A DNA stretch of 64,000 nucleotides, from the NCBI GenBank assembly GCA_035632955.1, contig DASQFU010000211.1, positions 14,025 to 78,024 of the forward strand, in the 5' to 3' direction. Both the position numbers and the translations under genes were made by a program. The DNA comes from Candidatus Limnocylindria bacterium. Lineage in GTDB: Bacteria; Eisenbacteria; RBG-16-71-46. The notes beneath the pieces were generated by a model that was not told the origin of the DNA, searched no databases, and saw only the letters and a list, made by a program, of their open reading frames with translations. Positions within the stretch are counted from its first letter, which is position 1, and each line of letters opens with the position of its first letter. Shown in pieces: positions 28,101 to 58,779 of this stretch.

Positions 28101-30695
28101 CTGCTGCGGCCTCGGCCCCCGCAATGCACGCATCAATTGTGGATAGATCGGAAAGCCCATCACCCCGACGATCGCGAGCGTCCAAATCCAAGCGGCTCCC
28201 GGCAACCACGTCCACGCCGACGCCAGGAGTGCGAGCATGCCCGGCGCCACCAGACTGCGTCTCAGATTGTCGAGGATCTTCCAGCGGCTGATGAGCGGGA
28301 GCCGGTTGCGCTCGACGCCGTGACGCGCGGGCACCCACGGGAAGAGCCAGAACAGAATCTGCCAGTCGCCCCGCACCCAGCGGCGCTGGCGACCGGCGTG
28401 GGCGAGCACGCTCGAAGGAAAGTCGTCCACCACCTCGACGTCGGAGACGAGGGCGGTTCGGGCGTAGAGGCCTTCGAACAGGTCGTGCGAGAGCAGCGCG
28501 TTCTCGGGCACACGTCCCGCGAGGGCCGCACGGAACGCGTCGACGTCGTAGAGCCCTTTGCCGGTGAAGATCCCTTCGTTGAACAGGTCCTGATACACGT
28601 CCGAGACGGCGGTCGTGTACGGGTCCACTCCGGTATGCCCGGCGTAGACGCGCGCGAACAGCGAGCCCGCGGCGCTCGCCATGGTGACGCTGACCCGCGG
28701 CTGGAGGATCCCGTAGCCGCGAGTCACCCGGCCGAGTCGCGGATCGAACAACGGACGATTGAGCGGGTGGCGGATGATTCCAATCAGCTGACGGGCGGCA
28801 TCACGAGGCAACCGCGTGTCGGCATCCAGGGTGATGCAGTAGCGGACTTTCTCGAGCATCGAGGGGTCGCCGACGACGACGCGGAACGAGGTGTCGGTCG
28901 CGCCGCGCAGCAGGGCATTGAACTCTTCGATCTTCCCGCGCTTCCGCTCCCAACCCATCCACACGCCTTCGCGCGCGTTCCATCGCCGGGGTCGATGGAC
29001 GAGGTAGAACCGATCCGGTCCACCCCGGGCGTGGCGGGCATTCAGGGCCGTGATCCCGTCCCGCGCGATCGCAAGGATTCCCTCGTCCTCGGGCTGCTGC
29101 GCTGCGGTCGCATCGGGGAAGTCGGTGAGCAGGGCGAAGTGAACGTTGGCATCCAGGTTCCCGAGCGCCTGGACCTCGAGGTGCTCGACCAGCGACTTCG
29201 CGTTTCGCCCGCTGCCGAGGAGCGTGGGAACGATCACCATGGTGCGCGCGTCTTCTGGCACGCCGTGATGGAGCTCGATCCGCGGCAGACGCCTGGGTCG
29301 TGCAATCCGGTGGACGAGCCGCTGGACCAGCAACACCGCGATCTGATTCGCCGGTAGGAGCGCGAGCAGGCCGATCCACGGCCAGACGGCGTTCTCGGCA
29401 CCGTGATCGCGTGCGTACAGAACCGCTGCAGCGATTCCCAGCGCGGTGATCGTCGCGATCGATCCGAGATAGAACCCCAGAGCGTTGCCGAAGGCCACGC
29501 GACGGATGCGATGCCGCCACTTCGGCGCATAGGCCACGTCCACCTCGAAGTCGCGACGACCGGGGCCGATCAAGTGGTATCCGACGTGCGCGCTGGCGTC
29601 GGCGTGGAGCGGATCCGTCGTCTGGCGTGCGCTCTCGATCGCGCGCAACGCCACCCGCACCTGAGCTTCGCCGCTCGGCTCGGACAACTCTTCGACCGCC
29701 TGGCGGTAGCGGTCGCGGCTCGCGAAGTCCATCTGTCCGTAGACTCCGGCCGGATCGCGCTGGAGCACCTGCTCCATCAAGCTGACGCGCTCGACCGTGC
29801 GATTCCAATCGATCGTCGCGACCAGCCGCAGCGCGGTGATCGAGTTTCCCGTCGACACCTGCCCCATGGTTTGCCGCTGATGCTCGGCACGGACCGCCTG
29901 GTCGATGTCGAGCCCCTTCGCCTCCAGCCGGCGCTCGAGCTCGATCCTCAGCTCCGAAACCCGCGGCCCGAGCTCCCGCAGGCGCTGCTGGAGCTGGACC
30001 ACGAACGCGTCCGAGAGCGATTCGGGGAGGGCTGGCAACGGGTCTTTCGGGCCGATCGATTCGAACCGCGCGAAGTATCGGTCGGCCTCCGCGACGCCCG
30101 CGCGGCTTTCCATGATCTCGTGGGCGAGACGTCTCAGATTCTCGATCAGGCAGAGCTTGAGCATGCTCGGCCACGCCCACAGCTCGCCGAGCGTGAGCGG
30201 TGCCACGGTCTGGTAAGCGCTGACGAAGTGAGTCAGCCGGTGAAGATCGAAGCGCGCGTCGCTGTGGCTGATGAACTCCAGCGCCATGGCATGGACGCGA
30301 GCCATGCCGGCCAGATCACGCGAGGCGAGTTTGGGAAGCTCGAGGTAGTAGCGCTGCGGGAGGTTCTTCCGCACCTCGTGGATCTCCGCTTCCACCAGGT
30401 GAAAGTTGTCCAGCAACCATTCCGCGGCCGGGGCCACGGCTTCGCCGCGACGCACGTTCTGCGCGAGGGCCCGATAGGCGTGGCGCAGGACGCGGGCATT
30501 CTCGTGAAGACGAGGGAGGAAACGGCGCGAGCGGCGGCGAGGATTGCGCGCGAGCGTATAACTCGCCGCCAGAACTCGAGCGCGCTCCTCGAGATGCTCG
30601 ACGCTCAGAAGCTCGCTGCGAAGCGGGCCCGCACCCGAGCCGGCGGACCGTCGACTCGGGTCTCGCCATCTCCAGAGAACCGAGTCCATTCCCAT
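22104..30695 (-). CDS. cgs: cyclic beta-1,2-glucan synthase (Cgs/NdvB/ChvB-like), 2863 aa
   Basis: Size and architecture: N-terminal TM region. Glycosyltransferase core with [12 protein letters not shown] (DxD) and [11 protein letters not shown] (QxxRW). C-terminal GH94 phosphorylase-like region with [12 protein letters not shown]. Confidence 0.9.
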
Positions 30696-45810: not shown

Positions 45811-46425
45811 TTATTTGGACCTCGACGGCGCCGGTCGCACCGGCGCCTTGCGCCGCCGATTCAGCTCGCGATGGCGGAAGCAGCCGACGAGGTGATCGTT
45901 CACCATCCCGGTCGCCTGCATGAACGCGTAGCAGATCGTCGAGCCGACGAACGAGAAGCCGCGCCGGCGCAGCTCGCGGCTCATCGCGTCCGACTCGGCG
46001 GTCCGGGCCGGGACCTCGGAGAGCTCGCGCCAGCGGTTGAGGATCGGGCGGCTTGCGACGAAACTCCAGATGAACGCGTCGAAGCTGCCGACTTCCCGCT
46101 GCACCTCGAGGAATGCTCGGGCGTTATGAACCGCGGCGGCGACCTTCAGCCGATTGCGAACGATGCCCGGATCTCTGAGCAATGCTCGTTGCCTGCGGGC
46201 GTCGAAGCGGGCGACCTTGCGCGGGTCGAAGCCATCGAACGCGCGGCGGTATCCCGCGCGCTTCTCGAGGATCGTGCGCCAGCTCAGCCCGGCTTGCGCC
46301 CCCTCCAGCACCAGCAGCTCGAACAGCGCCCGCTCCTCGTGCAGCGGCGTTCCCCACTCGTGGTCGTGGTAGACGAGATAGAGCGGCGTTTGCCGGGCCC
46401 AGCCACAGCGCTGTTTGCGGTCCAT
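45811..46425 (-). CDS. tag: DNA-3-methyladenine glycosylase I
   Basis: RCGWARQTPLYLVYHDHEWGTPLHEERALFELLVLEGAQAGLSWRTILEKR is the Tag signature region. ATG 46425 chosen within listed ORF 45811..46605. Confidence 0.9.
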   Translation of the reverse strand: MDRKQRCGWARQTPLYLVYHDHEWGTPLHEERALFELLVLEGAQAGLSWRTILEKRAGYRRAFDGFDPRKVARFDARRQRALLRDPGIVRNRLKVAAAVHNARAFLEVQREVGSFDAFIWSFVASRPILNRWRELSEVPARTAESDAMSRELRRRGFSFVGSTICYAFMQATGMVNDHLVGCFRHRELNRRRKAPVRPAPSRSK

Positions 46426-46579
46426 GTCGGGTGGATTGTAGCGAGGTCCGGTCGTTTTAGCGCTGCATTCCGATTCGAGACGCGCGCCGCACCGGCCGAT
46501 AACCAGTGCGGCCTCCTCTCCCCCGCACCCAGCGCTCGGTTGGGATCCGGGGCGGTTCGGGTCCTCGTCGAGCGAATGC

Positions 46580-47782
46580 ATGAGCGCGGTTCCCCAGCAG
46601 GCCATCGACGTCCTTCCGGCTTCGCCGGTACTGCGCCCGCGACCCGTCCGGTTAAGAGGACCAGGGCGGCTGCTGGGTGTCGATGCATGGCGCGGCCTGG
46701 CGCTGGTGCTGATGTCGCTCGACCACGCCGCGTACTACGCGGGATCCCACATCCAAGCGGAGCACTTCGCGGACTTCCCGAGCGAGCTTCCGGTCTGGGG
46801 CTTCCGGCTGGTCGGCCTGATCACCAACCTCGCGGCGCCGACGTTCTGGCTCGTGAGCGGGGTCAGCATCGCCCTGCTGATCCCCAGCCTGCGCATCAGG
46901 GGTGGCGGCGAATGGGCGGTGACGCGGTACCTGTGGATTCGCGCCGGTTGCCTGGCGCTGCTCGACGTCGCGGTCGTGCCGTGGCTCTGGAGCAAGCCAC
47001 CGGTGCCGACCTACGAGTACTCGTTCGGCTTGTTGTCGAGCTTCGCGGTCAGCTTGATCCTGATCAGCGGCTTGCGTTTTCTGCGCCTGCGCTACTTCAT
47101 GGCCGTGAGCATCGCGCTCGTGATCGGCTATCAGTGGCTCGCGGGAATCATCACGCCGGCGATGCTGAAGGATTGGGGCCTGGCGTCGAGCCTCTGGACC
47201 CGCTACGGCACGCCGGGTCACACGCCGCATACACTGGGCGTGCCGTTTCCCGTGCTCGGCTGGTTCGGGCTGATGGGCTGCGGCTACGTGTTCGGCAAAC
47301 GGTTGTATGCCGATCGCGGCCGGCATCCGCGTCATTGGGCCGCCCTGGGCCTCGGCTTGCTCGCGACCTGGCTGGTGGTGCGCGTGCTCCGCTCCTATGG
47401 GAACACCGTGCCGATTTCCTACCATGGCGATTGGAGCGAGCTGATCACGATGTACAAGGGACCGGTGAGCCTGGCGTTCCTGTGCTTCAACGCTGGCTGG
47501 GGCTGTCTCGGCTTTGCGCTGCTGCTGCGCCTGTCGCGGCAGCTCTCGGACCGCCCACTCCGCTGGCTGGTGGCGCTCGGGCAGGCGTCGCTATTCACGT
47601 TCATCGCCCACCTGCTGGTCTACCGCACGCTGGGACGGATCGAGCTGAAGTTCATGCCGCACGCCGAGGTGTTTCGCTACGCGACGACCTTCATCGCCGG
47701 ACTCGCGCTGCTCGTGCCGATGGCTCGCTGGTACGCGGGGCTCAAGCGACGCCACCCGCGGAGCGTGCTCCAGTACCTGTAG
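46580..47782 (+). CDS. DUF1624 / heparan-alpha-glucosaminide N-acetyltransferase-like membrane protein
   Basis: LGVDAWRGLALVLMSLDHAAYY N-terminal motif (RxxxxDxxRGxA...M...H) and about 10 TMs. Confidence 0.65.
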   Translation: MSAVPQQAIDVLPASPVLRPRPVRLRGPGRLLGVDAWRGLALVLMSLDHAAYYAGSHIQAEHFADFPSELPVWGFRLVGLITNLAAPTFWLVSGVSIALLIPSLRIRGGGEWAVTRYLWIRAGCLALLDVAVVPWLWSKPPVPTYEYSFGLLSSFAVSLILISGLRFLRLRYFMAVSIALVIGYQWLAGIITPAMLKDWGLASSLWTRYGTPGHTPHTLGVPFPVLGWFGLMGCGYVFGKRLYADRGRHPRHWAALGLGLLATWLVVRVLRSYGNTVPISYHGDWSELITMYKGPVSLAFLCFNAGWGCLGFALLLRLSRQLSDRPLRWLVALGQASLFTFIAHLLVYRTLGRIELKFMPHAEVFRYATTFIAGLALLVPMARWYAGLKRRHPRSVLQYL

Positions 47783-47795
47783 CCGAGCGTCCGGG

Positions 47796-48884
47796 CTAGA
47801 GACGCGCGCGCAGGCGCGTCTCGTAGGCCGCCAGATCCTCGACGGTTTCGGGGCGTGCGAGCCCGGCCAAACGATTCGGGTCGGCGGCGAGAGCGCGTTC
47901 GATCGTCCGGACCAGCCCACGTTGGCGGGGGCTCAACCACCGCTGCGGATCGGTTCCGAGAGCCAGCGCGGCGTTCACGCGCGTCGCTTGCATGGGTGTG
48001 AGCGGCAGCAGCCGGAGCGGCGAGCGCTCGAGACTATGCTTCTGGTCCGACCCCGACGCCGAACGGCCGGATCCCGCACCGCGCACGGCCCGTTCACCGA
48101 CCAAGGCACGGGCGGTGCGGTGCTGGTCGTCGTCGCGGGTGAACACGCGTGCGGCGCAACCTGCCGCCGACGCTTTGCGCACCAGCTCACGATAGGAGAG
48201 CGCGTCACGGTCGAACATCACCTCGACCGCCTCGCCGCCCTCGCGCCAAACGGCCCGCGTCGCCACGACCCCCGCGATCGCGCCCAGCTTCGCCTCACCC
48301 TGCCAGTAGCAATGCATTCCGAAGGCCGCCGGCTCGAACGCGGCGAGATGGGTCTCGTCCCGCGCCAGCTCGAGATAGTCGGGTATCGGGCGCCCCGCGG
48401 CCGCCAGCGCCTCGATCAGGCGCTTCGCGACCTGGTGCGGGCTGTAGAGCCCATCCCGACGCGGCACCACGTCACGGCCACCGCCATCCACGAAGCGCAA
48501 CACCGGATTGTTCCAGGCGGGCTCGCTGAAACGCGCGAGCACCTCGCGATCGCGCCCACCGCGGTTGTTGTGAATGGCGATCGGCACGAACTCGGTTTCG
48601 ATCGCCTCCACCAGCAACGGATGAGACAGCACCTGCCGGCCGAAGCCCACGCAAGTTCCGCAGCCCGGAATCTCTTGAAAGAGGATCAGCGCCGGCTTGC
48701 GGTCTTGGCGTGACTCGGCCAAACCCCGATCGAGATCGCGTTCCCAGCGGACCACACCGAGCTCGGGGGGATTCGAGCCAAGGTTCGGCTCGCGCGCTCC
48801 GGCAAGAAGCTCCACAGGGCGGGAACCGGCCAGCGGCCAGAAGGCGGTCAGCGCGAGCAAAGTCCAGGCGCGGGTTCTCGACAT
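47796..48884 (-). CDS. secreted thioredoxin-like domain fused to an MsrA-like domain
   Basis: Signal peptide MSRTRAWTLLALTAFWPLAG. KPALILFQEIPGCGTCV redox motif. FGMHCYWQGEAKLGAIAGVVATRAVW...EVMFDRDALSYRELV resembles the MsrA GCFWG...GY core. Confidence 0.6.
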   Translation of the reverse strand: MSRTRAWTLLALTAFWPLAGSRPVELLAGAREPNLGSNPPELGVVRWERDLDRGLAESRQDRKPALILFQEIPGCGTCVGFGRQVLSHPLLVEAIETEFVPIAIHNNRGGRDREVLARFSEPAWNNPVLRFVDGGGRDVVPRRDGLYSPHQVAKRLIEALAAAGRPIPDYLELARDETHLAAFEPAAFGMHCYWQGEAKLGAIAGVVATRAVWREGGEAVEVMFDRDALSYRELVRKASAAGCAARVFTRDDDQHRTARALVGERAVRGAGSGRSASGSDQKHSLERSPLRLLPLTPMQATRVNAALALGTDPQRWLSPRQRGLVRTIERALAADPNRLAGLARPETVEDLAAYETRLRARL

Positions 48885-49010: not shown

Positions 49011-52000
49011 CTATTCGCCCACCATCTGGACCTGGGGCGGCGGGACCACCCCCTGCTCCTGCGCGGCTTTGGCGACCTTGATGGGGACCAGCTTCGTGAA
49101 CGCCTCGTCGAAGCGCCACCGGCGCCACTCGCCTTCCAGGCGCACCAGAATGTGCTCGCCCTCGATCCGGATCGGCGCTCCCCGCCGCTTCGCCTCGCGC
49201 GCGATGAACGGCGCCACGTCGCGCATCCATTCCTCGGCGGTGATCGCCGATGGCACGTTGCCGTGGTGCTGTGCCCGGTCGAGCTTGACCTCGGGGTCGA
49301 ACAGGTACACGCGGCCAGCCGCCGCTCCCGACATCAGGAACTTGCCGGCGTAGGGCTTCGGCCGCAGCGCCAGCTCGCCTCGCGCGCCGGGTTTCCGCAG
49401 CCCCATCACGACGTGCAGCGAGTTGTCGCCGCCCGACATCAGGTACTCGAACGCGTACTCGTTGGGCGAGCCGAAGTGGATGCTCTTGAAGCCGGGGGCG
49501 CGCGTCTTGCCGTCAGGGAGATTCACCTTGTTCTGTCCCGCGGCGGCGTAGCGCGAGCCGGTGTCCCAGAAGCTCATCGTGCCGCCGTGCGCGGCGTACG
49601 CGCAGGTGTTGAGCGCATCCTGGAGCACGAACAGATAGCCCGAGTCGGCCTTCATCGCCCAGTGGCTCTGGCCCTGCCCGTAGGTCCACAGCTCCGCGCC
49701 TTCCAGCAGCGCGCCGAAGAAATCTCCGAACTCCCGGCCGTAGAGCTCGATCACGACGCCCGCGGCGGCGCGGCCCTCGCGGTCCGCGAGGTTGGTGGCG
49801 ACGTAGCGGGGCCCACCCGTGAATCCGTAGCCGACCAGGTTTCGCCAACCGAGGCGCACCGCCTCGGAAGTGAAACGCGACGCGGAGCGCAAATCGAACG
49901 ACTCGCCGACAAAGCCGGCGAAGTCGACGACCAGGACGTCGCGCGCCGCATCGTGCGGCGGCGCGAGATCGTCGCGTGTCTCGAGCGTGATGCGGCCGTA
50001 ACGACCGGCGCCGCGGCCCGCCTCGGCGAGCGCCTCGTGCAAAGGTGGCACGTCGTCGAGCAAGCGGAAGATGCCGCCTTCCGATCGGCCGTCCGCCATG
50101 CGCCCACCATCGGTGAGGTACTCCATGCTCGACAGCGCCTTGCCTCCGAGGTCGCAGTAGGTGAGCCGCTTGCGAAGCTCGGTCAGCATGCGCAGCGCGG
50201 CCGGGCGCTGCGGCTTGCCGATCCTCGCGAACCGAGGCAGCGCGTGCTCGACCAGGTAGCGATAGTCCTCGAAACTCAGCGCTCCGGCGCGCTCGAGCGT
50301 CGCGTCCACCAGCTCGTTGGCCGGCGCCGGCAGATCGTCGTCGGGGCCGAACAGCCGCCCGGCGCTCATCCCGCCCGCGCCCTCGAGCAGGCAACGCAAC
50401 TGCTCGAGCCGGTCGTCGACGTGACGCTTCCACGCCTCGTCGGCGAGTCCTTCGACCTGCTCGAGCGTCACGGCCATCCCGACCTTGCGTCCCGCGCGCT
50501 CGACCAGGATGCGCTCGCCGAAACGGTTGCGCAGCTCGAGCCCGTCGCGCTCGGGAGCGGTGAACACCTCGACCACGCCGCCATAATCGCGACGCTCGGG
50601 ATTGCCGCCCGGACGCATGCTGAACCGCAAATCGGCGCCGCCGTCTCCGAGCACGCCTTGCTGGTGCAGGACGCGCAGAATGCTGTCGGCGATCTTGGCT
50701 TCGCTGCCGTTGGCGACGGCGTGCACGCCGCCTTGACCGGTCTCGATCGAGGCGATGATCTCGTGCGGCCGCAGGAACTTGATGTCCATGTTCTCGCGGA
50801 ATCCCACCACCCGCGCCTCGCCCCGGCGCCGGGACTCGACGATCGTGAACTTGTACGGTCCGGTCGGCGTGAGCTGCACGTAGTTGGTCATCAGCAGCCG
50901 GAACTTCGCGCGCCGCGCCTCGTCCATGGCTTCGAGATCGACGCCGGTGATGGGCGAGATGATCTGCGAGGCTTCCTCGGTCGTGAGCCCGAGCACCCGC
51001 CGCGTGAAGTCGACGAGATAGGCGGCGTATTCCGTGTCGGTGAGCGCCTTGCGCTCGTAGACCGAATCACCGTGATACGACTCGGCGCCCGGGCCCATCG
51101 AGGGGTCGGCGTGCACGAACCCGAACTCGTTCAGGAACGGTGAGGTCGAATCGACGCCGACCTGCTCGCCGTTGTGCATCAGCAGCAGGTTGTAGGCCTT
51201 GAATGGATGCGCGCCGGCGGGATTGCCGCGGCCCTCGGCGTCGATCGCGGGCGAGTTGGTCGGGTAGCGGTGGTGCATCCCCCAGACGTGCGCGTGCAGC
51301 ACCGCGGTCCGGAAGGTGCGGCCTTTGACCGTCACCTCCACTCCGCCGTGCTCGCGCGCGCCGGGATATCCCGCCCAGAAGCGATCGAAGTCGAAGAACT
51401 CGGGAATCATGTGCGTCCACCCGGAGATCTTGATGGCGGCGAGATCCTCGCCGAGCGAGACCACGTAGCCGCGGCGCTTGAGCGCGTACTTCCCGGGCGG
51501 CGCATCGTCACGCCCGTGCGTCCGGTAGAAGCGCGAGTCCAAGAGATGCGCGAGAGCCGTGAAATACTCTTCGCGCACGTCGGCGATGAAGTCCGCCAGC
51601 CGTTCGCTCAACTGCGCTCCGCCCGGGAGCGACGTCGCGGCCATCGCACCCGCTTCCAGTGCGGGCTCGACGCTCTCCAAAGCCAGTCCCAGCACGTCGT
51701 CGTCGAGGTCGCCGTACTTGGTGCGCCGCTGCAGCCAGCGCGGACTCTTGATCAACTGGCGCCCGTACCGCTCGAGCACGTCGGGCTTGAGCTCGACGAA
51801 CAGCAGGTAGAAGTCGCCGGGATTCTCGCGCAGGTCGGCTTTGCGCCAGCCGTCCTCGCCCGCGTACTGCTCGCGCACCGGCAGCTTGAACTCACGCAAT
51901 TGCAGCCGCACGCCGTCGAGCGTCAGCTCGACGCCGGCCGCGTCGAAGAATCGGCAGCCGGTGAGATGATCCAGCATCTCGCGCACGGACTCGGCGCGGT

Positions 52001-55000
52001 CGGGGCCGATCGTGTTCAGGATCAGGCAGGTCTTCTCGCGCACTTCGCGGGGCGCGAAGCCAGCAAAGTCGATGCCGCCGCCGCGATTGTTGCCGCCGTT
52101 GAACGAGCGGCACGCGGACTCCCAGATTGCTTGAACCGTCACGGGCTCCGAGACCGCCAGCGAGCCGACGCGGCAGGAGTCGTGCTCGACCGCCTCTGCC
52201 GGCCGTTCCTCGGCCTCCGCCGGCACGGGCCCGGTCGCCGCCGGGCGCCGCGGGTGCGTGGGCATGACGAGCAGGTCGGTGCGGCCGCGGAGCTTGCGCA
52301 GATCGTCGATCAGACGGTCCTGCGCGACCACGTTGCCCGCGGCATCGAGCGCGCCCGATTGGCGGTTGAGCGCATCCACCAGCACCGCGAGCTTCACCAT
52401 GTTGAGCACCGTCCAGTTGCGGAAGCGATGGCGCATCAGGTGCCGGTCGTTCTGTACCGTCAGCTCGGGCTTGGTGGTAATCCCTCCGCGCGGACAATCG
52501 AGGTGGCAGTTGCCGCACTGATTGCAGCCGAATGCCGCGGCCTTGCCGATGCTGGCTTCGACCAACCCGTCGGCGCCCGCAATCAACACCTTGAGCATGT
52601 CGAGCTCGCCGCGGAGCCCGCCGGAAGCGAACAGCCGCGTTCCCCCTCCCGCGCCGAACGGCACGCCGTTGAGATCGCGAATCGTACGCAGCGTGCCCGA
52701 GCCGTCGAGGTCCACCTTCTCGTGCACCAGGGCATGATGGGTATGGAGGATGGTGCGAAAGATGTCCGGCCAGCCGACGTGCGACGAGTCGGCGTGGTAG
52801 TTCCCCGAGCCGCCGAGGCCCGAGTCGACCAGCAGGTAGTCGACGATGAAGTTGGACCACATCCCGGCGGCGACGTACTTCGTGTAGTTCGATCCCGTGA
52901 TCTTGATGCCGCAGTGGTTGTGATAGAGGACCCACAGCCACACCTCGGCCGGCATGTCCTCGATCGAATAGATGTCGTGCTTGGGATCGGGCGAGAGCGC
53001 GTCGGTGCCGACCGGAATGTTGCGCGCCTTGCTGACCGTGGTCGTCACTTTGGCGCCCGCCAGGCGGCCGCCTTTGCCGGGCTTCGCACCCTGGTTGATC
53101 TTGATCTCCACGTCGCGCACACGGCGGAGATCGGCGGCGTGCATACCGAAATGACCGCTGGCCGCCTGCAGGCTCTGCCACGCCCAGTCCTCGTCGCGCT
53201 CGAGGCGGATCGGGCCGCCCTCACCGGACGAGGTCATCGCGAGCCCCGCGTTGCCTTCGATCCGCGCCACCAGAAAATCCTCGGAGGCCGCGCCGAGCGA
53301 GATGCTGGCGTGGCTCACCGGTCCCTGCCAGATCGGCTCCCGGAATCCGAAACCCGAGAGCACGAGCGCGCCGGCGGCCCCGGACGGCGCCGGCGCCGAT
53401 CGCAATGTGACGGTACCGTCGCGGGAGGCGCGCCGGATCGTGTGCCCGTGACCGCCGTGATCCCGCGCGAGCAGCTCGATCCGCGTCTCTGTGCCGCCCC
53501 CGTCGCGCGCGACCATCCACAGCGAGCCGTCGCCTTCGAGCGCATGCTCGAGCACGTGACCGGACTCGAGCTGCACTTCGAACCCTCCGCGGCCGTCGGC
53601 GGTGAAGCCGAGCAGCGCGGGGCTCTTCGCCGCCACATGCACGGTGACGTTCGCTCCCGGCGGCACCGCTCCCGGCCGCGTGAACCCGCGCGACACCGCG
53701 AGCGAGACGTAGTCGAGCGACGTGGGGTCGCGGCGCAGGCGCTCGAGCGACCAGGCGAGCGCGTCGCGCGTCACCTTGACGCCGATGCCGTCGAGCGAGA
53801 GCGGCCCCATGTCGCCGCCGATCAGGAAGTCGTCCTCGGTCGGGAAGGCGCCGGCCGCCATCTTGTAGATCACTTCGAGAAAGTCACCGTTCAGGTTGCG
53901 ATTCGTGTTCATCAGGTGATAGTTCGCGGTCTCGTGCGCGAGGATGCGAGCCGCGTGCACCAGCGGCAGCTCCGGGCGGAGTTGCCGGAGCAGCGCCGAC
54001 ACCTGGTAGGTTTCCCTCACGTGCGGGGGTGTCGGCTCGGCGGCCACCCGGCGCTCGTTCAGCTCCCGGTTCAGCGCCCCGAACTCGCCGGTCGCCAGCG
54101 TATCCACCTCGCGGATCCAATCCTCGGTCATCGTGATCGCCATGGTGTTGCCCGAGGTTTTCTGGATGTCGTCGATGCCCATGCACGACAGAAAGTCGAG
54201 GATGCTGTGCTGCCAGCACGTGAGCGTGTTGAGCGCTTGCTTCTCGAGCTCGGCTGGATCCCGCGCGGCGAGATGCGCGAGCGCCGGCCCCAACGGCGCG
54301 CCGTGGTAGACGTCCACCAGCTCGGGCATCAACGCGAGGGCGGCGAGATGCGTCATAGCGCCGCCGTTGGCGCCGAGCAGCACCGACTCGTACACGGTCG
54401 CCGCCGAGGCCTGCGTATCGGTGTCGCCGCCCGCGCTCACGAGTTGGACACGGGCGCGGATCAGTCGCGCTTTGAGGAACGCGTCCACTTTTGGTGTCAG
54501 CCGGTAGGACTTCTCGACGCCCGACTGATAGTGAATCATCGCCACCCCGTCGAGCCGCACCGCGCCGTCCAGCGCTTCCCAGAATCCCGTTTCATAGCGC
54601 AGGTACACGGACAGCAGCAGCTCGGGATTGATCGCCAGCACCGCTGCCGCCTGCTCGGCGAGGCGCGGGCTCCAGGACAGCTCGACGATCGCCGCAGCGC
54701 CGAGCACCGCGCGCAAGCCTTTGGCGCCATCCGCTCCCGAGAGACTCGCGACGTGGCGCTCTTCGAGGCGCACCATGAGGTGGCGGGCGTGCCGCTCGAG
54801 CACCGCCCGATGTGCCAGGTAGGCGTCCGCTTCGACCACCAGCAACGAGCGCGTGTGGAGATCCGCCTTGGGATCCGCCGCCGCCATCGCTGCGAGGTAG
54901 GCGCGCTCCATCGACTCGCCGTCGCCGTACGGCAATGGCCCGACGATCATCGGCAGGTCGAGCCGTAGCGAGCGGACCGGCTGCTGCCTCTGCCCCTCGC

Positions 55001-55502
55001 CGGTGCGGAACAGCACCGCGGGATGCTTGCGGGCGATGTCCCAGGCGGTCGAAAACTCTTCGCGCAGCCCGTCGTTGGCGGGGTGCGTGATGGCCGCATG
55101 CGAGAAGTACGAGCGCCAGAATCCGTAGTGCCACGCGGCGCCGATCGTCAACGGCTCCTGCCGGAATCGCTCCTTGAGGACTTTATCGACGTCGAACGAC
55201 GTGATCTCGAGCTGGGGGATCTCGCGCGACACGCGCGAATAACGGCTCAGGAATACGCGGCCTCGCTGCGCGCGACCAAGATTCCAGAACGCATCCTCGT
55301 CGAGCCCGGCGCGCTCGATCAGGAACGAGAGCATGCGCCGCTTGCGCGGCCGATCCGTGACGCGGGCGCTGTCGGGATCGACGAGCAATGTGAGCAGGTC
55401 TTCCCAGTCGGCGAGCCGTTCGCGGAACACGCTCTCGAGCGCAGGGGTCGCGACCTCGCCGTTGCCGAGCTCGCCCGCGAGCTGATCGATGCCGATGCTC
55501 AT
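49011..55502 (-). CDS. glutamate-synthase-like multidomain protein (FMN/TIM-barrel domain, class-II amidotransferase-like domain, GXGXG domain), 2163 aa
   Basis: ATG 55502 (MSIGIDQLAG) forms an ATGA overlap with the upstream gene stop. FMN-domain block INQGAKPGKGGRLAGAKV...HDIYSIEDM...DSGLGGSG...FGCNQCGNCHLDCPRGGITT (nt about 52500-53100). Class-II GATase-like HHRYPTNS...AHPF...LMHNGEQ. C-terminal GXGXG-like region FGSPNEYAFEYLMSGG. Confidence 0.85.
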   Translation of the reverse strand: MSIGIDQLAGELGNGEVATPALESVFRERLADWEDLLTLLVDPDSARVTDRPRKRRMLSFLIERAGLDEDAFWNLGRAQRGRVFLSRYSRVSREIPQLEITSFDVDKVLKERFRQEPLTIGAAWHYGFWRSYFSHAAITHPANDGLREEFSTAWDIARKHPAVLFRTGEGQRQQPVRSLRLDLPMIVGPLPYGDGESMERAYLAAMAAADPKADLHTRSLLVVEADAYLAHRAVLERHARHLMVRLEERHVASLSGADGAKGLRAVLGAAAIVELSWSPRLAEQAAAVLAINPELLLSVYLRYETGFWEALDGAVRLDGVAMIHYQSGVEKSYRLTPKVDAFLKARLIRARVQLVSAGGDTDTQASAATVYESVLLGANGGAMTHLAALALMPELVDVYHGAPLGPALAHLAARDPAELEKQALNTLTCWQHSILDFLSCMGIDDIQKTSGNTMAITMTEDWIREVDTLATGEFGALNRELNERRVAAEPTPPHVRETYQVSALLRQLRPELPLVHAARILAHETANYHLMNTNRNLNGDFLEVIYKMAAGAFPTEDDFLIGGDMGPLSLDGIGVKVTRDALAWSLERLRRDPTSLDYVSLAVSRGFTRPGAVPPGANVTVHVAAKSPALLGFTADGRGGFEVQLESGHVLEHALEGDGSLWMVARDGGGTETRIELLARDHGGHGHTIRRASRDGTVTLRSAPAPSGAAGALVLSGFGFREPIWQGPVSHASISLGAASEDFLVARIEGNAGLAMTSSGEGGPIRLERDEDWAWQSLQAASGHFGMHAADLRRVRDVEIKINQGAKPGKGGRLAGAKVTTTVSKARNIPVGTDALSPDPKHDIYSIEDMPAEVWLWVLYHNHCGIKITGSNYTKYVAAGMWSNFIVDYLLVDSGLGGSGNYHADSSHVGWPDIFRTILHTHHALVHEKVDLDGSGTLRTIRDLNGVPFGAGGGTRLFASGGLRGELDMLKVLIAGADGLVEASIGKAAAFGCNQCGNCHLDCPRGGITTKPELTVQNDRHLMRHRFRNWTVLNMVKLAVLVDALNRQSGALDAAGNVVAQDRLIDDLRKLRGRTDLLVMPTHPRRPAATGPVPAEAEERPAEAVEHDSCRVGSLAVSEPVTVQAIWESACRSFNGGNNRGGGIDFAGFAPREVREKTCLILNTIGPDRAESVREMLDHLTGCRFFDAAGVELTLDGVRLQLREFKLPVREQYAGEDGWRKADLRENPGDFYLLFVELKPDVLERYGRQLIKSPRWLQRRTKYGDLDDDVLGLALESVEPALEAGAMAATSLPGGAQLSERLADFIADVREEYFTALAHLLDSRFYRTHGRDDAPPGKYALKRRGYVVSLGEDLAAIKISGWTHMIPEFFDFDRFWAGYPGAREHGGVEVTVKGRTFRTAVLHAHVWGMHHRYPTNSPAIDAEGRGNPAGAHPFKAYNLLLMHNGEQVGVDSTSPFLNEFGFVHADPSMGPGAESYHGDSVYERKALTDTEYAAYLVDFTRRVLGLTTEEASQIISPITGVDLEAMDEARRAKFRLLMTNYVQLTPTGPYKFTIVESRRRGEARVVGFRENMDIKFLRPHEIIASIETGQGGVHAVANGSEAKIADSILRVLHQQGVLGDGGADLRFSMRPGGNPERRDYGGVVEVFTAPERDGLELRNRFGERILVERAGRKVGMAVTLEQVEGLADEAWKRHVDDRLEQLRCLLEGAGGMSAGRLFGPDDDLPAPANELVDATLERAGALSFEDYRYLVEHALPRFARIGKPQRPAALRMLTELRKRLTYCDLGGKALSSMEYLTDGGRMADGRSEGGIFRLLDDVPPLHEALAEAGRGAGRYGRITLETRDDLAPPHDAARDVLVVDFAGFVGESFDLRSASRFTSEAVRLGWRNLVGYGFTGGPRYVATNLADREGRAAAGVVIELYGREFGDFFGALLEGAELWTYGQGQSHWAMKADSGYLFVLQDALNTCAYAAHGGTMSFWDTGSRYAAAGQNKVNLPDGKTRAPGFKSIHFGSPNEYAFEYLMSGGDNSLHVVMGLRKPGARGELALRPKPYAGKFLMSGAAAGRVYLFDPEVKLDRAQHHGNVPSAITAEEWMRDVAPFIAREAKRRGAPIRIEGEHILVRLEGEWRRWRFDEAFTKLVPIKVAKAAQEQGVVPPPQVQMVGE

Positions 55503-58228
55503 GAACGCTCCGTCCGTTCGAAGTCCTCGAGCGCCACGAACCAGTCCGGAGTCGGGGTTTCCATCACCCGCAGCGTCTGTCCTCCGTTCAGATGATTCGC
55601 CGGGCACACCTCGACGCAGGTGCCGCAGCCGATGCAGCGATTCTGCTCGGTCGTGATCCAGCGTGGATCCGCACCTTCGTACTCGTGGTTCGCGTGCGTC
55701 GGGCACACCTGAACGCACGCGCCGCAATGAATGCAGGTCGCGGCCGGACCCGCGTCGTTCTCGGCCCGCAACAGCAGGTAGCGGTTGAGACCGGGCAGGG
55801 AAGCCGGTGTGCGCTTCAGGTAGCCGCCCGGACGCACGTGCAGGAAGTCACGCTGATACCGCGGCGATCCGCGCACCGCCGAGAGGATCGCAACGTGACG
55901 CTCGCGGTCGCGCGGGCGCTCGCGATCGGACGCCTGCTGCATCACCTCATAGAGCGGCAGGTGCGGAATGCCGGCCTGACACACCTCCTCGCACTTGCCG
56001 CATCGCATGCACAGATCGAGCAACACGCTGCCCGCGCGCGGCATGGTTGCGCCTGCGAACGTCTCTTCCCCGAGATGCGTCAGCATCTGCGGGAGCCGGA
56101 TCTTCGATTCGTGGAAGATCGGGCACACCGAGTTGCACTCGCCGCAGTTGACGCAGTTGAGCGCGCGCGCCGCGGCCACCTGCGACGTCGGAGCGGCCCC
56201 GTTGCCATCGGCGGCGAGCGGAGGCGCGCCGCCGTCCGCCGTGAGCTCGACCGGCCGCACGGCGAAGCGCGCACCGATGCGCGCCGGCTCGCCGCGTCCG
56301 GACGCCGGCCCCGCGAGCGACGCGAGCATGCCGCGTGCGAGCCGCACGAGGCCGGACAGCGGTGACTCGCAGGCCGCGCGCATCGCCGCGATGCCGGGCA
56401 CGAACCCGGCCTGAGCGAACGCGCCAAGCAGGCCGTGAAAGCGGAAACCGGTGAGGATGCCGCGATTCACGAGCTCCAGCGGATCGAGTGCCCGCCGCGT
56501 GGCGCGCATCCGATCGCCTTCCTCTCGTCCGAACTTGCGCCCGAAGTAGCCCGCTTGCCAGCGCCCGAGCACGTAGGGCTTGCCGTGGTGCCCGCTCGTC
56601 GCCAGATCGAGCAGCGCCGGCGCCAGCAACAGGTCGATGGCGAACGACCCTTTCCTGTGATCGGTCAGATAGGCGCCGATCACGAGCGCGCTGCCATCGC
56701 TCAGGTAGTAGATCTCGACGTCGAGCTCGCTGCCGGCGCCGCGCACTAACCGCTCGGCGCGCGGCAGATAGTGGGACACTTCGTCAGCCGGCATCACGAT
56801 CTCCGCGGCCAGCAGGCCCGGGCCGAGGCGTTTGGTCTGCTGCGGCTTGAAACGCTCGCGGGCGAAGCGAACGCTCTCTTCGCCGAGCACAGCCGGGTTT
56901 CCGGGACATTGAACGAGCAAGGTGGCGAACCCACGCGCTGCGGCGATGCTCAGGAAATCGACGAACAAATACGACTGCAGGTCGTGGTTCACTGCCGGCG
57001 CACCGAACTCGGAGACCAGGACGCCGAGCTCCGCGGGACCTGCGATACGCGTCCAGGGCAGGTTCGCACCTGCCGAGATCGTGCTCGGACGCTCGTGCCA
57101 TGTCCGTGCGTCCTCGTCCTGCCACACGCGGTGGGTGTGGTGCAGATGCGAGGCCGACAACAGCTTCAGGTTGCCGGGACATGGGAAACTGCGGCTGGCT
57201 TCGTGGCCGATCCAGGCCGCCGCGGCGAGCGCGTCCGCCTGTGTTCCGAAGCCGAGCAGAAAGGCGCCAATCTCCGGGCGACGCTCGACCTCGACCGTGA
57301 GCTGCAGCACCAATCCCAGCACGCCTTCGCTCCCGGCGAGATCCGAAAGCCCGATCGGCTGCTGGCCGCGGGAGCGGAACCACTCTGCGCTCTGCTCGCC
57401 CGTGAGCGTATGGCGCTTCGCGCCGTCCGGCACGTCCACCCGCCCGTCGTCGTGGAGACGAACGTGCTCTCCAGTCGGCAGCAGGAGATCGGCGGCGCGC
57501 ACGCTGTCGAGTGATCGGCCATGCGCGAACGCGTTGAGGCCGATGCCGCCGGTCACGAACCACCCCACGAGCGTGCCGCCGAGGTTCGAGGGATAGACCT
57601 TGAGCGCGAGCCCGCGTTCCGCCAATCGCTCGTGGATGGTGCGGAGCCGCGCGCCGGCGCCAATCACTGCGACGCCGTCGGTCGTGTCGATGTCGACGGT
57701 GTCGAGACGCGAGAGGTCGAGCGTGAGGCCGGCGTCGTTCGGCACCGAGCCGCCCATGGCGGTCGACGCGGCGCCGCGCAACGTCACGGGAACACGATGC
57801 GCCCGCGCCCAGCGCAAGGCGGAAGCCGCCTCGGCCAGGTTGATCGGCAGGAAGATCAGATCCGGCACGGCGTGAGTGAGCGTGCGTGTGAAGAGTCTGC
57901 CGAGATAGACGTTCTGGTCGCGGTCGGCCTCGGAGCGCAGGAACGCATCGGTGACGATCCGCTCGCGCAAGGCCGGGCCCGGGACGGCTCCGCGAGCGGC
58001 TGCGGCGGGATCGGGAGCCTCGGTCGTCAGGGCCGAATGCAACGACGCCGCCAGAACGCGCGTCCGCGACGGCGCATCTCGCTCACCCGGCGCACGGTCT
58101 TCGTCGAAGAAGTAGTGGAGGTCCGGAAACGCCGTCTTGACGGTGTTTGCGCGCTGCTCGGGATTGAGTTGTATGAACTCGCTCAGCGGGTGTCGGACGG
58201 TCTTTTCAAGAAAGGAGGGTTCGGTCAT
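55499..58228 (-). CDS. FAD-linked oxidase (GlcD-like FAD_binding_4) fused to 4Fe-4S cluster domains
   Basis: PDLIFLPINLAEAASALRWARAHRVPVTLRGAASTAMGGSVP FAD-binding block. Cys clusters CVNCGECNSVCP, CMRCGKCEEVCQ, CIHCGACVQVCP and CIGCGTCVEVCP. ATG 58228 (MTEPSFLEK) chosen; the ORF is open up to 58462. Confidence 0.8.
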   Translation of the reverse strand: MTEPSFLEKTVRHPLSEFIQLNPEQRANTVKTAFPDLHYFFDEDRAPGERDAPSRTRVLAASLHSALTTEAPDPAAAARGAVPGPALRERIVTDAFLRSEADRDQNVYLGRLFTRTLTHAVPDLIFLPINLAEAASALRWARAHRVPVTLRGAASTAMGGSVPNDAGLTLDLSRLDTVDIDTTDGVAVIGAGARLRTIHERLAERGLALKVYPSNLGGTLVGWFVTGGIGLNAFAHGRSLDSVRAADLLLPTGEHVRLHDDGRVDVPDGAKRHTLTGEQSAEWFRSRGQQPIGLSDLAGSEGVLGLVLQLTVEVERRPEIGAFLLGFGTQADALAAAAWIGHEASRSFPCPGNLKLLSASHLHHTHRVWQDEDARTWHERPSTISAGANLPWTRIAGPAELGVLVSEFGAPAVNHDLQSYLFVDFLSIAAARGFATLLVQCPGNPAVLGEESVRFARERFKPQQTKRLGPGLLAAEIVMPADEVSHYLPRAERLVRGAGSELDVEIYYLSDGSALVIGAYLTDHRKGSFAIDLLLAPALLDLATSGHHGKPYVLGRWQAGYFGRKFGREEGDRMRATRRALDPLELVNRGILTGFRFHGLLGAFAQAGFVPGIAAMRAACESPLSGLVRLARGMLASLAGPASGRGEPARIGARFAVRPVELTADGGAPPLAADGNGAAPTSQVAAARALNCVNCGECNSVCPIFHESKIRLPQMLTHLGEETFAGATMPRAGSVLLDLCMRCGKCEEVCQAGIPHLPLYEVMQQASDRERPRDRERHVAILSAVRGSPRYQRDFLHVRPGGYLKRTPASLPGLNRYLLLRAENDAGPAATCIHCGACVQVCPTHANHEYEGADPRWITTEQNRCIGCGTCVEVCPANHLNGGQTLRVMETPTPDWFVALEDFERTERS

Positions 58229-58442
58229 TCCGCCGGGTTCGAGGAAGGCCGATCCGCCGGCGGTCTCTCGCCGGACCACCGCGTGCGGAACTCGCGGCGA
58301 AGCGTCGCGGGCTCCTGCTGGAGCCCGGATCATCCATGTGCCGCGAACCGAAGCACTATAGCAGAGGGTGCCGGGGCGAACCACGCGACGCCGGTCCAGA
58401 CGCTGGTGGAAGAACTGGTCCAGCCTGCACGCTCGGTCTGAT

Positions 58443-58779
58443 TCAGACGTTTCGGAGAGCATTCACGACCGTGGCATCCAGCACGAGAACGATCGAGGTA
58501 TCGCTTTTCGATCAGCGACACGATCGCTTCACGCGGCCCTTGCAGCCAGTCCGGACTGCCGTAGAAAGCCTCCTGGCTGAATCGCCGATGCTCCAAGCTG
58601 TCGTAGCTCCTGATCAGAAAGTAGGACACGTCGTCGTGAGGCGATGGCCCGTAGGCAACGACGTCGACGTACCATCGCTCAAGCAAAGGAAGGGATGCCT
58701 GAGTGACGAGACGGTGGAACTCGTCACGACTTCCCGGCTTCAAATTGTAGGAACGGATTTCCACGAATCTCTGCATCAC
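58443..58779 (-). pseudogene. NIPSNAP-like protein gene with probable +1 frameshift at an A4 run
   Basis: MMQRFVEIRSYNLKPGSRDEFHRLV...SPDWLQGPREAIVSLIE is NIPSNAP-like. After gaaaag (T-run 58505-58508 on the + strand) the listed frame turns into junk with 7/21 G/C third positions. The +1 frame reads SDTSIVLVLDATVVNALRNV-stop with 14/21 G/C third positions, ending at 58443. Confidence 0.5.

Follow-up and report, generated by a model that had tools for sequence, protein, structure and literature searches.

A two-gene Eisenbacteria locus encoding a rearranged glutamate-synthase-like protein and a probable flavoprotein module for its electron input

The locus described here raises the question of which reaction is catalysed by a glutamate-synthase-like protein whose domains are rearranged and whose gene adjoins that of a flavin adenine dinucleotide (FAD)/iron-sulfur (Fe-S) protein. 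It lies on contig C211 (DASQFU010000211.1) of the Eisenbacteria assembly GCA_035632955.1 (G000; 3.14 Mb, 88% complete). Positions 14025-78024 of this contig, a stretch of 64,000 nucleotides, were analysed and are termed the window. The pair is read as an enzyme that reductively aminates 2-oxoglutarate, with glutamine as nitrogen donor or at least by GltS-type chemistry, and that has a new flavoprotein module for electron input; a probability of about 0.6 is assigned to this reading. It builds on an original prediction made from the DNA sequence alone.

The two genes are predicted to form one enzyme

Both genes are located on the minus strand of the window:

49011..55502, minus strand: giant gene, a glutamate-synthase-like fusion of 2163 amino acids and 236.8 kDa (open reading frame with ATGA overlap)
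55499..58228, minus strand: partner gene, an FAD/Fe-S subunit of 909 amino acids and 98 kDa (open reading frame; start in agreement with the homologue alignment)

Before the choice of starts, the open reading frames extended over 49011..55727 and 55499..58462 and together filled positions 49011-58462. The starts at 55502 and 58228 match the homologue alignments, in which M1 is conserved. At the junction (...GAG CGT TCA TGA GCA TCG...) the ATG of the giant gene overlaps the TGA of the partner gene as ATGA, and the two-gene layout of the original prediction was thus verified by the list of open reading frames, the junction sequence and the start-aligned homologues. The giant reading frame is not a chance one, as at least 119 near-full-length orthologues from several phyla, among the matches listed, are 57-78% identical to it over approximately 2150 amino acids.

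The partner gene is located directly upstream of the giant gene in all 53 loci that include the giant 5' end. These loci belong to five phyla (Eisenbacteria, Thermoleophilia and other Actinomycetota, Planctomycetota, Latescibacterota and Krumholzibacteriia), and clustering of the flanking open reading frames revealed no third gene conserved beside the pair across phyla. A search of 1.84 billion representatives with a profile of the C-terminal half of the giant yielded 264 relatives. Among these, five single-chain relatives of 2508-3152 amino acids all contain FAD_binding_4, FAD-oxidase_C, Fer4 and Glu_synthase domains, while GXGXG was matched in four and GATase_6 in two of the five; in one chain the two halves stand in reversed order. 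This obligatory pairing, together with Rosetta-stone fusions of both genes in one chain, argues that the two genes encode one enzyme. The picking of flanking reading frames was crude and, in DNA of high G+C content, gave shadow frames and false fusions; an apparent fusion at locus L014 was rejected as such a frame artefact. No description of this pairing of a flavoprotein with a fused GltS was found in the searchable full-text literature.

Domain order of the giant protein

The domain map of the giant combines profile matches, AlphaFold2 (AF2) models and alignments to homologues that are encoded by separate genes and are detailed below as the split family:

55053..55502, minus strand: N-terminal helical region, residues 1-150, with the invariant block YFSHAAITHPANDGLREEFST (residues 132-152); invariant alignment columns, aligns to the split barrel-1 subunit, AF2 confidence low
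54093..55043, minus strand: first triosephosphate isomerase (TIM) barrel, residues 154-470 approximately, a paralogue with degenerate flavin mononucleotide (FMN) motifs; AF2, Foldseek, hhalign to the split barrel-1 subunit
53358..54092, minus strand: helical linker and small beta domain, residues 471-715; AF2 secondary structure
52278..53357, minus strand: GltS synthase (FMN) TIM barrel, residues 716-1075; PF01645, matches to GltS structures in the PDB
52491..52526, minus strand: Fe-S motif C993-x2-C996-x2-C999-x3-C1003-P within the FMN barrel; invariant in the giants and the split FMN subunit, weak Fer4 matches
52173..52175, minus strand: codon of Cys1110 (EHDS/CRVGSLAV, the slash marking the predicted self-cleavage site), candidate N-terminal nucleophile (Ntn); invariant, aligns with the Cys of the split EGG-CGVLG start
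50523..52175, minus strand: class-II (Ntn) glutamine-amidotransferase-like domain, residues 1110 to approximately 1660; hhalign to the split 864-residue protein
49863..50522, minus strand: helical linker domain, residues 1661-1880 approximately; AF2 secondary structure
49083..49850, minus strand: GXGXG-type beta-helix domain, residues 1885-2140 approximately; hhalign to canonical GltB, PF01493 in orthologues, AF2 beta-rich

The FMN barrel was recognized directly. PF01645 was the only Pfam family matched by the giant (residues 727-1032, E 3e-44), and the barrel matched the GltS structures 1ea0 and 2vdc in the PDB with E values of 1.6e-21 to 4e-24, so that a complete GltS FMN/TIM-barrel core is present as predicted. 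All sequence strings on which the original prediction relied were found in the translation, including QGAKPGKGG (residues 804-812), CPRGGITT (residues 1003-1010), LDLPMIVGPLPYGDGES, VQLVSAGGDTD and ILDFLSCMGIDD. Outside this barrel, Pfam searches with cut pieces of the giant gave nothing at E<=10 apart from weak Fer4 matches at the Cys motif of the barrel itself. The sole NCBIfam match was the GltB large-subunit model. HMMER profiles of the whole giant and of its C-terminal half, run against PDB sequences, recovered the FMN barrel only; a fasciclin match in this search was rejected as chance.

The domains that follow the barrel were recognized through their split homologue. An alignment of the C-terminal half (residues 1100-2163) matched the split 864-residue protein over 812 columns with a probability of 100% and an E value of 2e-42 in hhalign, and the very first residue of the match is Cys1110, paired with the Cys of EGG-CGVLGV. 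The split protein matches GATase_6 above the Pfam cut-off and also the amidotransferase models of GlmS and PurF. The same half of the giant matched the GXGXG region (residues 1326-1511) of a canonical GltB of 1556 amino acids with an E value of 7e-4, and the split family did so with 4e-6. PF01493 was matched directly, below threshold, by two giant orthologues (8.5e-5 and 3.8e-4) and above cut-off in split and fused relatives. The amidotransferase and GXGXG domains of the original prediction were therefore supported indirectly.

Indirect support was also obtained for the second, degenerate barrel that had been suspected in front of the FMN barrel. The AF2 model of the N-terminal part has a predicted local distance difference test (pLDDT) score of 77 and displays beta/alpha alternation at residues 154-400, where the score is mostly above 90. 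Foldseek matched this model to TIM barrels from E 7.5e-5, including FMN-dependent lactate oxidase, FabK and GMP reductase. In hhalign, the N-terminal alignment matched the split barrel-1 subunit (E 1.4e-4), which itself matches PF01645 (E 1.5e-13 to 2.7e-16), and the barrel-1 subunits of other split operons belong to PF01645 as well (E 1e-11 and 3e-16). The paralogy of the first barrel rests on this homologue and not on a direct match, since comparison of the N-terminal with the FMN-barrel alignments gave only 21 residues common to both inputs and comparison of the N-terminal alignment with canonical GltB gave an E value of 0.13. The translation of residues 471-715 contains no Cys, and hence no ferredoxin domain is present between the barrels. 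The order of barrel 1, FMN barrel, class-II amidotransferase and GXGXG domain is thus right.

Conserved catalytic motifs and a predicted self-cleavage site

Conservation was assessed in an alignment of 30-35 giant orthologues from several phyla with a mean column identity of 63%. In the FMN barrel, the invariant residues comprise S759-G-E-G-G-P, Q804-G-A-K-P-G-K-G-G-R, R827, S837-P-D-P-K-H-D-I-Y-S-I-E-D, G897-G-S-G and C993/C996/C999/C1003-P, and SPDPKHDIYSIED and DSGLGGSG are further conserved motifs. In an alignment with Azospirillum GltS, these motifs fall on its known substrate loop. We take the SGEGG motif, together with Gln, Lys and Arg in the QGAKPG...R block, to be the 2-oxoglutarate/FMN site of GltS, and all of these are invariant in the giants. 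The cluster site consists of four invariant Cys residues (CxxCxxCxxxCP), where GltS has a three-Cys [3Fe-4S] site.

Invariant residues of the amidotransferase domain are D1108-S-C1110-R-V, H1410-H-R-Y-P-T, H1432-P-F (within an invariant AHPF motif), H1443-N-G-E-Q and T1488-D-T-E. The motifs around the Cys, RYPT, HPF, HNG and TDTE are kept in giants and split-family subunits alike. As encoded, the nucleophile Cys is residue 1110 and thus internal to the giant chain. The amidotransferase subunits of the split family carry a short conserved pro-sequence that ends in EGG before the Cys, and from this pro-sequence the loss of residues before the Cys appears to be a trait of the family. In the giant, self-cleavage between Ser1109 and Cys1110 is predicted and would yield chains of 120.4 and 116.4 kDa.

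A flavoprotein without the metal site of its relatives

The partner protein is composed of the following domains:

57455..57865, minus strand: PCMH-type FAD-binding domain, residues 122-258; PF01565 (FAD_binding_4), E 7e-26
56429..57454, minus strand: cap or FAD-oxidase_C-like domain, residues 259-600 approximately, without His/His/Glu metal triad; profile alignment to LctD, PF02913 in split and fused relatives
55967..56164, minus strand: first dicluster domain, residues 689-754, two CxxCxxCxxxC motifs of Fer4_8/Fer4_17 type; Pfam, eight Cys invariant
55586..55744, minus strand: second 2x[4Fe-4S] ferredoxin domain, residues 829-881; Pfam Fer4 families

The GlcD-like FAD domain and the four Cys4 ferredoxin-type motifs that had been noticed in the sequence were confirmed by Pfam and a motif scan. 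The four complete CxxCxxCxxxC motifs are C692/695/698/702, C740/743/746/750, C832/835/838/842 and C865/868/871/875, and all sixteen Cys residues are conserved in the homologue alignment. When 36 partner sequences were combined into a family profile, LctD, mouse D-lactate dehydrogenase (LDHD) and glycolate oxidase were matched with E values of 2e-26 to 8e-20, and the alignment spans all of LctD (residues 42-466). In this alignment HAGDGNLH of LctD corresponds to EVYYLxDGxALV and GEHGIG to GRPYVLG, so that the metal-site positions read Y/V and P-Y and the His/His/Glu site is not kept. The partner thus has the fold of the 2-hydroxyacid dehydrogenases with their defining metal site gone, and the substrate or donor at its FAD site cannot be named from this fold because the metal site is absent.

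The C-terminal ferredoxin domain of the partner has its homologue at the N-terminus of the split barrel-1 subunit, in a Fer4 domain (E 5e-8), and the remainder of the partner corresponds to the split FAD subunit. These correspondences suggest that the gene boundary simply moved between the split and the fused form.

A widespread split form of the module

Genome G039, from the same phylum, contains the module as a split operon of four consecutive genes in the same order:

Gene 1, 661 amino acids: FAD_binding_4, FAD-oxidase_C and Fer4_8
Gene 2, 561 amino acids: Fer4 and partial Glu_synthase barrel (E 1.5e-13)
Gene 3, 598 amino acids: Fer4 and Glu_synthase FMN barrel (E 1e-97)
Gene 4, 864 amino acids: GATase_6 and GXGXG, both above Pfam cut-offs

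Homology to the last three of these products identifies the giant, at the level of sequence comparison, as a fusion of three split-family genes (barrel 1, barrel 2 and amidotransferase-GXGXG). In a collection of 5.8 billion proteins, more than 7,400 are related to the split amidotransferase-GXGXG protein, which occurs in more than 586 species genomes. Its hosts include Desulfobacterales, Syntrophobacteraceae, Smithella, Dehalococcoidia, Anaerolineae, Aminicenantes, Acidobacteriota, Phycisphaerae and ANME-1 archaea. Almost everywhere the two barrel genes precede the amidotransferase-GXGXG gene. The flavoprotein gene was found upstream of the split set in 12 of the 48 loci with sufficient flank; the flavoprotein is an optional electron-input module, one of several options in the split family. 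Split operons of Desulfobacca and of a Desulfobacteraceae metagenome-assembled genome that lack the flavoprotein have glnA upstream, the carbamoyl-phosphate synthase genes (carAB) downstream and MvhD/MetV/MetF-like genes among their neighbours, which is a nitrogen-assimilation setting. Flavoprotein-less operons of Deltaproteobacteria (L102:1315-3483 and L161:2543-3657) are preceded by MvhD-like and MetV-like (DUF5981) genes, with MetF also present in L102, and these neighbours may hint at another arrangement for electron input.

NCBIfam contains no model for the split subunits, the sets are annotated only as 'glutamate synthase' in metagenome-assembled genomes of Desulfobacterales, Dehalococcoidia, Aminicenantes, Acidobacteriota and ANME-1, and no biochemical study of the family was found in the searchable literature. 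In many anaerobes, glutamate is probably formed mainly through the split family.

Nitrogen metabolism of the carriers

The original prediction had left the presence of a canonical gltB gene in the genome to be checked. None was found in the window genome, where neither a second PF01645 domain nor a PF01493 domain was matched and a tblastn search for canonical GltB came back empty. Within the phylum, the canonical GXGXG domain is present in only two of 206 genomes, neither of which has the giant, and canonical GltB is absent in 17 of 20 carriers of other lineages, including two closed chromosomes. Glutamate dehydrogenase is present in the window genome and in 202 of the 206 phylum genomes.

Glutamine synthetase was not detected in the window genome (Pfam; tblastn with type-I and type-III queries) and is absent in 26 of the 35 giant carriers of the phylum. 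The carriers that lack it include assemblies rated 96-100% complete and the single-contig genome G148 (rated 86% complete). Among the 171 phylum genomes without the giant, it is absent in ten, four of which carry the split form; the association between the giant and the absence of glutamine synthetase has a Fisher p value of 1.6e-17, uncorrected for shared ancestry. Where phylum carriers retain the enzyme, it is mostly of type III; at least four of the genomes (G105, G130, G132 and G133) encode it beside the giant, apparently as their only one. Outside the phylum, 16 of 19 tested carriers possess glutamine synthetase.

A type-III glutamine synthetase gene is located between the partner and the giant gene in five Eisenbacteria loci (L010:6353-8770, L011:7591-9900, L022:1093-3426, L025:7662-9902 and L047:2226-4559). 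At a further locus, a gap of 1.4 kb between the two genes (L026:7951-9343) was considered as a glutamine synthetase remnant; this was rejected, as what lies in the gap is an unrelated gene resembling a protease, by eye a small serine protease of the ClpP/SppA type.

As the window genome and most phylum carriers lack glutamine synthetase, the classical cycle of glutamine synthetase and glutamine:2-oxoglutarate aminotransferase (GOGAT) cannot run in the window genome. The genome nevertheless needs glutamine, given its at least five class-I glutamine amidotransferase domains. Glutamine uptake is a simple answer to the loss of the synthetase; use of free ammonia or reverse operation of the module are other options. 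The original prediction of a distinct enzyme rather than housekeeping GOGAT stands in part. Architecture and partner are distinct, but the exclusion of GOGAT is not upheld: the chemistry is most likely that of GOGAT, since canonical GltB is missing from the window genome and from 17 of the 20 other carriers, glutamine synthetase is encoded within the module in five loci and glnA and carAB accompany split operons.

Proposed reaction and alternatives

In the proposed reaction, the 98-kDa chain would take electrons from a donor at its PCMH/GlcD-like FAD site. Four [4Fe-4S] clusters would relay the electrons to the second TIM barrel of the 237-kDa chain, with its Cys4 cluster and FMN; the cofactor sites of this step are visible as conserved motifs. 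The FMN barrel would condense 2-oxoglutarate with ammonia and reduce the product to L-glutamate. Ammonia would be supplied by hydrolysis of L-glutamine at the Ntn-type amidotransferase domain, once self-cleavage after Ser1109 had exposed Cys1110 and left two chains, one of 120 and one of 116 kDa. The first of the two barrels, paralogous to the FMN barrel, would occupy the place of the GltB central domain, and the GXGXG helix would be structural.

Several observations weigh against this reading. The synthase loop departs from that of GltS at two positions (QGAKPGKGGR in place of QGAKPGEGGQ, i.e. E to K and Q to R), and the partner lacks the His/His/Glu metal site of the D-2-hydroxyacid dehydrogenases. 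The nucleophile Cys is internal to the chain and its exposure by cleavage is itself a prediction; AF2 confidence is lowest exactly at the amidotransferase motifs and Foldseek found no match for the C-terminal model. The usual source of the proposed substrate glutamine is missing in the window genome and most other carriers of the phylum. Finally, the sequence turned up only in soil and biocrust DNA runs and in no RNA runs. The loop substitutions would also fit an enzyme that uses the same scaffold for other substrates, taking the amine from an amide that is not glutamine or placing it on a 2-oxoacid that is not 2-oxoglutarate, or one whose flavoprotein oxidises a 2-hydroxy acid to a product that is then aminated. 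A parallel exists in the glutamate-synthase-like N-methylglutamate synthase MgsABC, which exchanges methylamine. The highly conserved first barrel with its own invariant block at residues 132-152, large inserts in the amidotransferase domain, the 2-hydroxyacid dehydrogenase fold of the partner and the scarcity of glutamine synthetase all speak for such a use. It is nevertheless considered unlikely, as the glutamine-site motifs and the residues presumed to bind 2-oxoglutarate are all kept, the neighbouring glutamine synthetase, glnA and carAB genes point to glutamine, NCBIfam matched nothing but the GltB large-subunit model and MgsABC is not known to need a redox partner.

The internal Cys and the uncertain AF2 core could instead mean that Cys1110 is never exposed and that the amidotransferase domain is a relic. 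The pair would then form glutamate from 2-oxoglutarate and free ammonia, or oxidise glutamate, and would in effect be a flavin/Fe-S-linked glutamate dehydrogenase; the lack of glutamine synthetase in most phylum carriers would fit this option. A relic would hardly keep its amidotransferase motifs and D1108, S1109, C1110, R1111 and V1112 invariant across phyla, the EGG pro-sequence of the split forms makes processing before the Cys a family trait, and a conventional glutamate dehydrogenase is already encoded in nearly all genomes of the phylum; this option is accordingly rated as rather improbable. The most speculative proposal, to which very little weight is given, is that the enzyme runs in reverse. 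Glutamate would be oxidised at the FMN, electrons would leave through the Fe-S clusters and FAD to an oxidant, and ammonia from the tunnel would amidate a second glutamate at Cys1110, resulting in an ATP-independent synthesis of glutamine. Such a reaction would explain why glutamine synthetase was lost from most phylum carriers alongside retained glutamine-dependent amidotransferases, and would fit its strong statistical association with the giant, the split form in four of the ten synthetase-less non-carriers, the apparently sole remaining synthetase beside the giant in at least four genomes and the membership of the partner in an oxidase/dehydrogenase rather than an NAD(P)H reductase family. 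However, no precedent is known for an Ntn amidotransferase that runs backward, and formation of the thioester from free glutamate would be uphill. Outside the phylum, most tested carriers have retained a glutamine synthetase; shared ancestry confounds the association, and glutamine uptake is a simpler account of the pattern.

Glutamine-dependent or GltS-type amination of 2-oxoglutarate is therefore retained as the preferred reading. If so, a dedicated flavoprotein of the PCMH type that carries four clusters joins the electron inputs of glutamate synthase, of which we know only NAD(P)H through GltD and free ferredoxin. A rearranged large subunit whose catalytic Cys could work only after the chain has cut itself would provide a clean test case for Ntn self-processing in a multi-domain enzyme. 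The locus also exposes a very large, unstudied split family of glutamate synthases that extends to sulfate reducers and ANME-1 archaea, and the loss of glutamine synthetase in most giant-carrying Eisenbacteria poses a testable puzzle on the glutamine supply of these soil bacteria.

Neighbouring genes

In the window, the pair is followed downstream by a thioredoxin-like gene (47796-48884, minus strand) and preceded upstream by a NIPSNAP-like gene (58330-58779, minus strand); neither adjacency is kept at other loci. An open reading frame of 642 amino acids (45871-47799, plus strand) has no Pfam match. A counterpart of its first 200 residues or so lies close to the giant gene at eight related Eisenbacteria loci (L004, L005, L009, L013, L015, L020, L039 and L067), mostly downstream of it and in convergent orientation. 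In three deep-branching carriers, the flavoprotein gene is immediately preceded by a codirectional gene for a large membrane protein (L061:4890-7286, L028:15-2045 and L046:6147-7295), the middle part of which was read by eye as spermidine-synthase-like. The window also contains an open reading frame of 2863 amino acids (22104-30695, minus strand).

Comparison with known systems

The FMN TIM barrel of the giant has the same substrate-loop motifs as GltB/GltD of Azospirillum brasilense (PDB 1EA0, 2VDC and 6S6S) and the ferredoxin-dependent enzyme (Fd-GltS) of Synechocystis (1OFD). Both known enzymes also have an Fe-S cluster at the same barrel position and have the class-II Ntn amidotransferase and the C-terminal GXGXG beta-helix in common with the giant. 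Outside the FMN barrel, the likeness between giant and GltS lies below HMMER detection. The electron path proposed for the module follows the same logic as that of GltB/GltD, from FAD through [4Fe-4S] clusters to the barrel cluster and FMN (PMC8097209). The order of domains differs. GltB consists of glutaminase (residues 1-422), central (423-780), synthase (781-1202) and beta-helix (1203-1472) domains (PMC8097209), i.e. amidotransferase, central, FMN and GXGXG, whereas the giant has the order barrel-like, FMN, amidotransferase and GXGXG. The permuted order and the non-GltD partner of the original prediction are borne out by this comparison and by the Pfam domains of the partner. The central domain (PF04898), for which neither the whole giant nor its cut pieces gave a Pfam match, is replaced by a second GltS-type barrel, and the nucleophile Cys, which is residue 1 of the mature GltB chain, lies 1110 residues into the giant. 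The cluster motif CxxCxxCxxxCP likewise contrasts with the three-Cys [3Fe-4S] site of GltS. The GltD small subunit, an adrenodoxin-reductase-like protein, is not encoded next to the giant; the neighbour is the PCMH-type FAD protein with its four clusters. A GltD/GltA-family NAD(P)H Fe-S flavoprotein of 452 amino acids is encoded elsewhere in the genome (C228:2537-3895, outside the window), unlinked to the pair and below all curated NCBIfam cut-offs.

The partner shares the FAD_binding_4 and cap fold with dehydrogenases of the GlcD, LctD, LDHD and YdiJ type. YdiJ is a fused enzyme in which the FAD fold is followed by a Fer4_8 dicluster domain, and this GlcF/HdrD-like domain is also present in the partner. 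In contrast to these enzymes, the partner has its His/His/Glu metal site replaced, lacks CCG domains, contains an additional 2x[4Fe-4S] ferredoxin domain and is always coupled to a GltS-like protein and not to quinone reduction.

MgsABC consists of separate amidotransferase-like, GXGXG-like and FMN-barrel proteins related to the domains of GltB. It is not known to have a redox partner or a second barrel and functions in a methylamine pathway, encoded beside gmaS and mgd genes. This three-subunit system, compared here by its description and not by sequence, thus differs from the fused giant chain with its obligatory FAD/Fe-S partner, and no gmaS or mgd genes were seen among the flanking open reading frames of the module.

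The closest relatives are the split, 'archaeal-type' sets, in which each of the three parts of the giant has a direct homologue, at approximately 27-33% identity, and the parts follow one another as in the giant. There they are encoded by separate genes or by partial fusions, and both barrels have a ferredoxin domain of their own. In the window they form one chain, barrel 2 has lost its ferredoxin domain and that of barrel 1 stands at the end of the flavoprotein. Within a large and uncharacterised lineage of glutamate synthases, the module of the window thus forms a branch that is fused and divergent.

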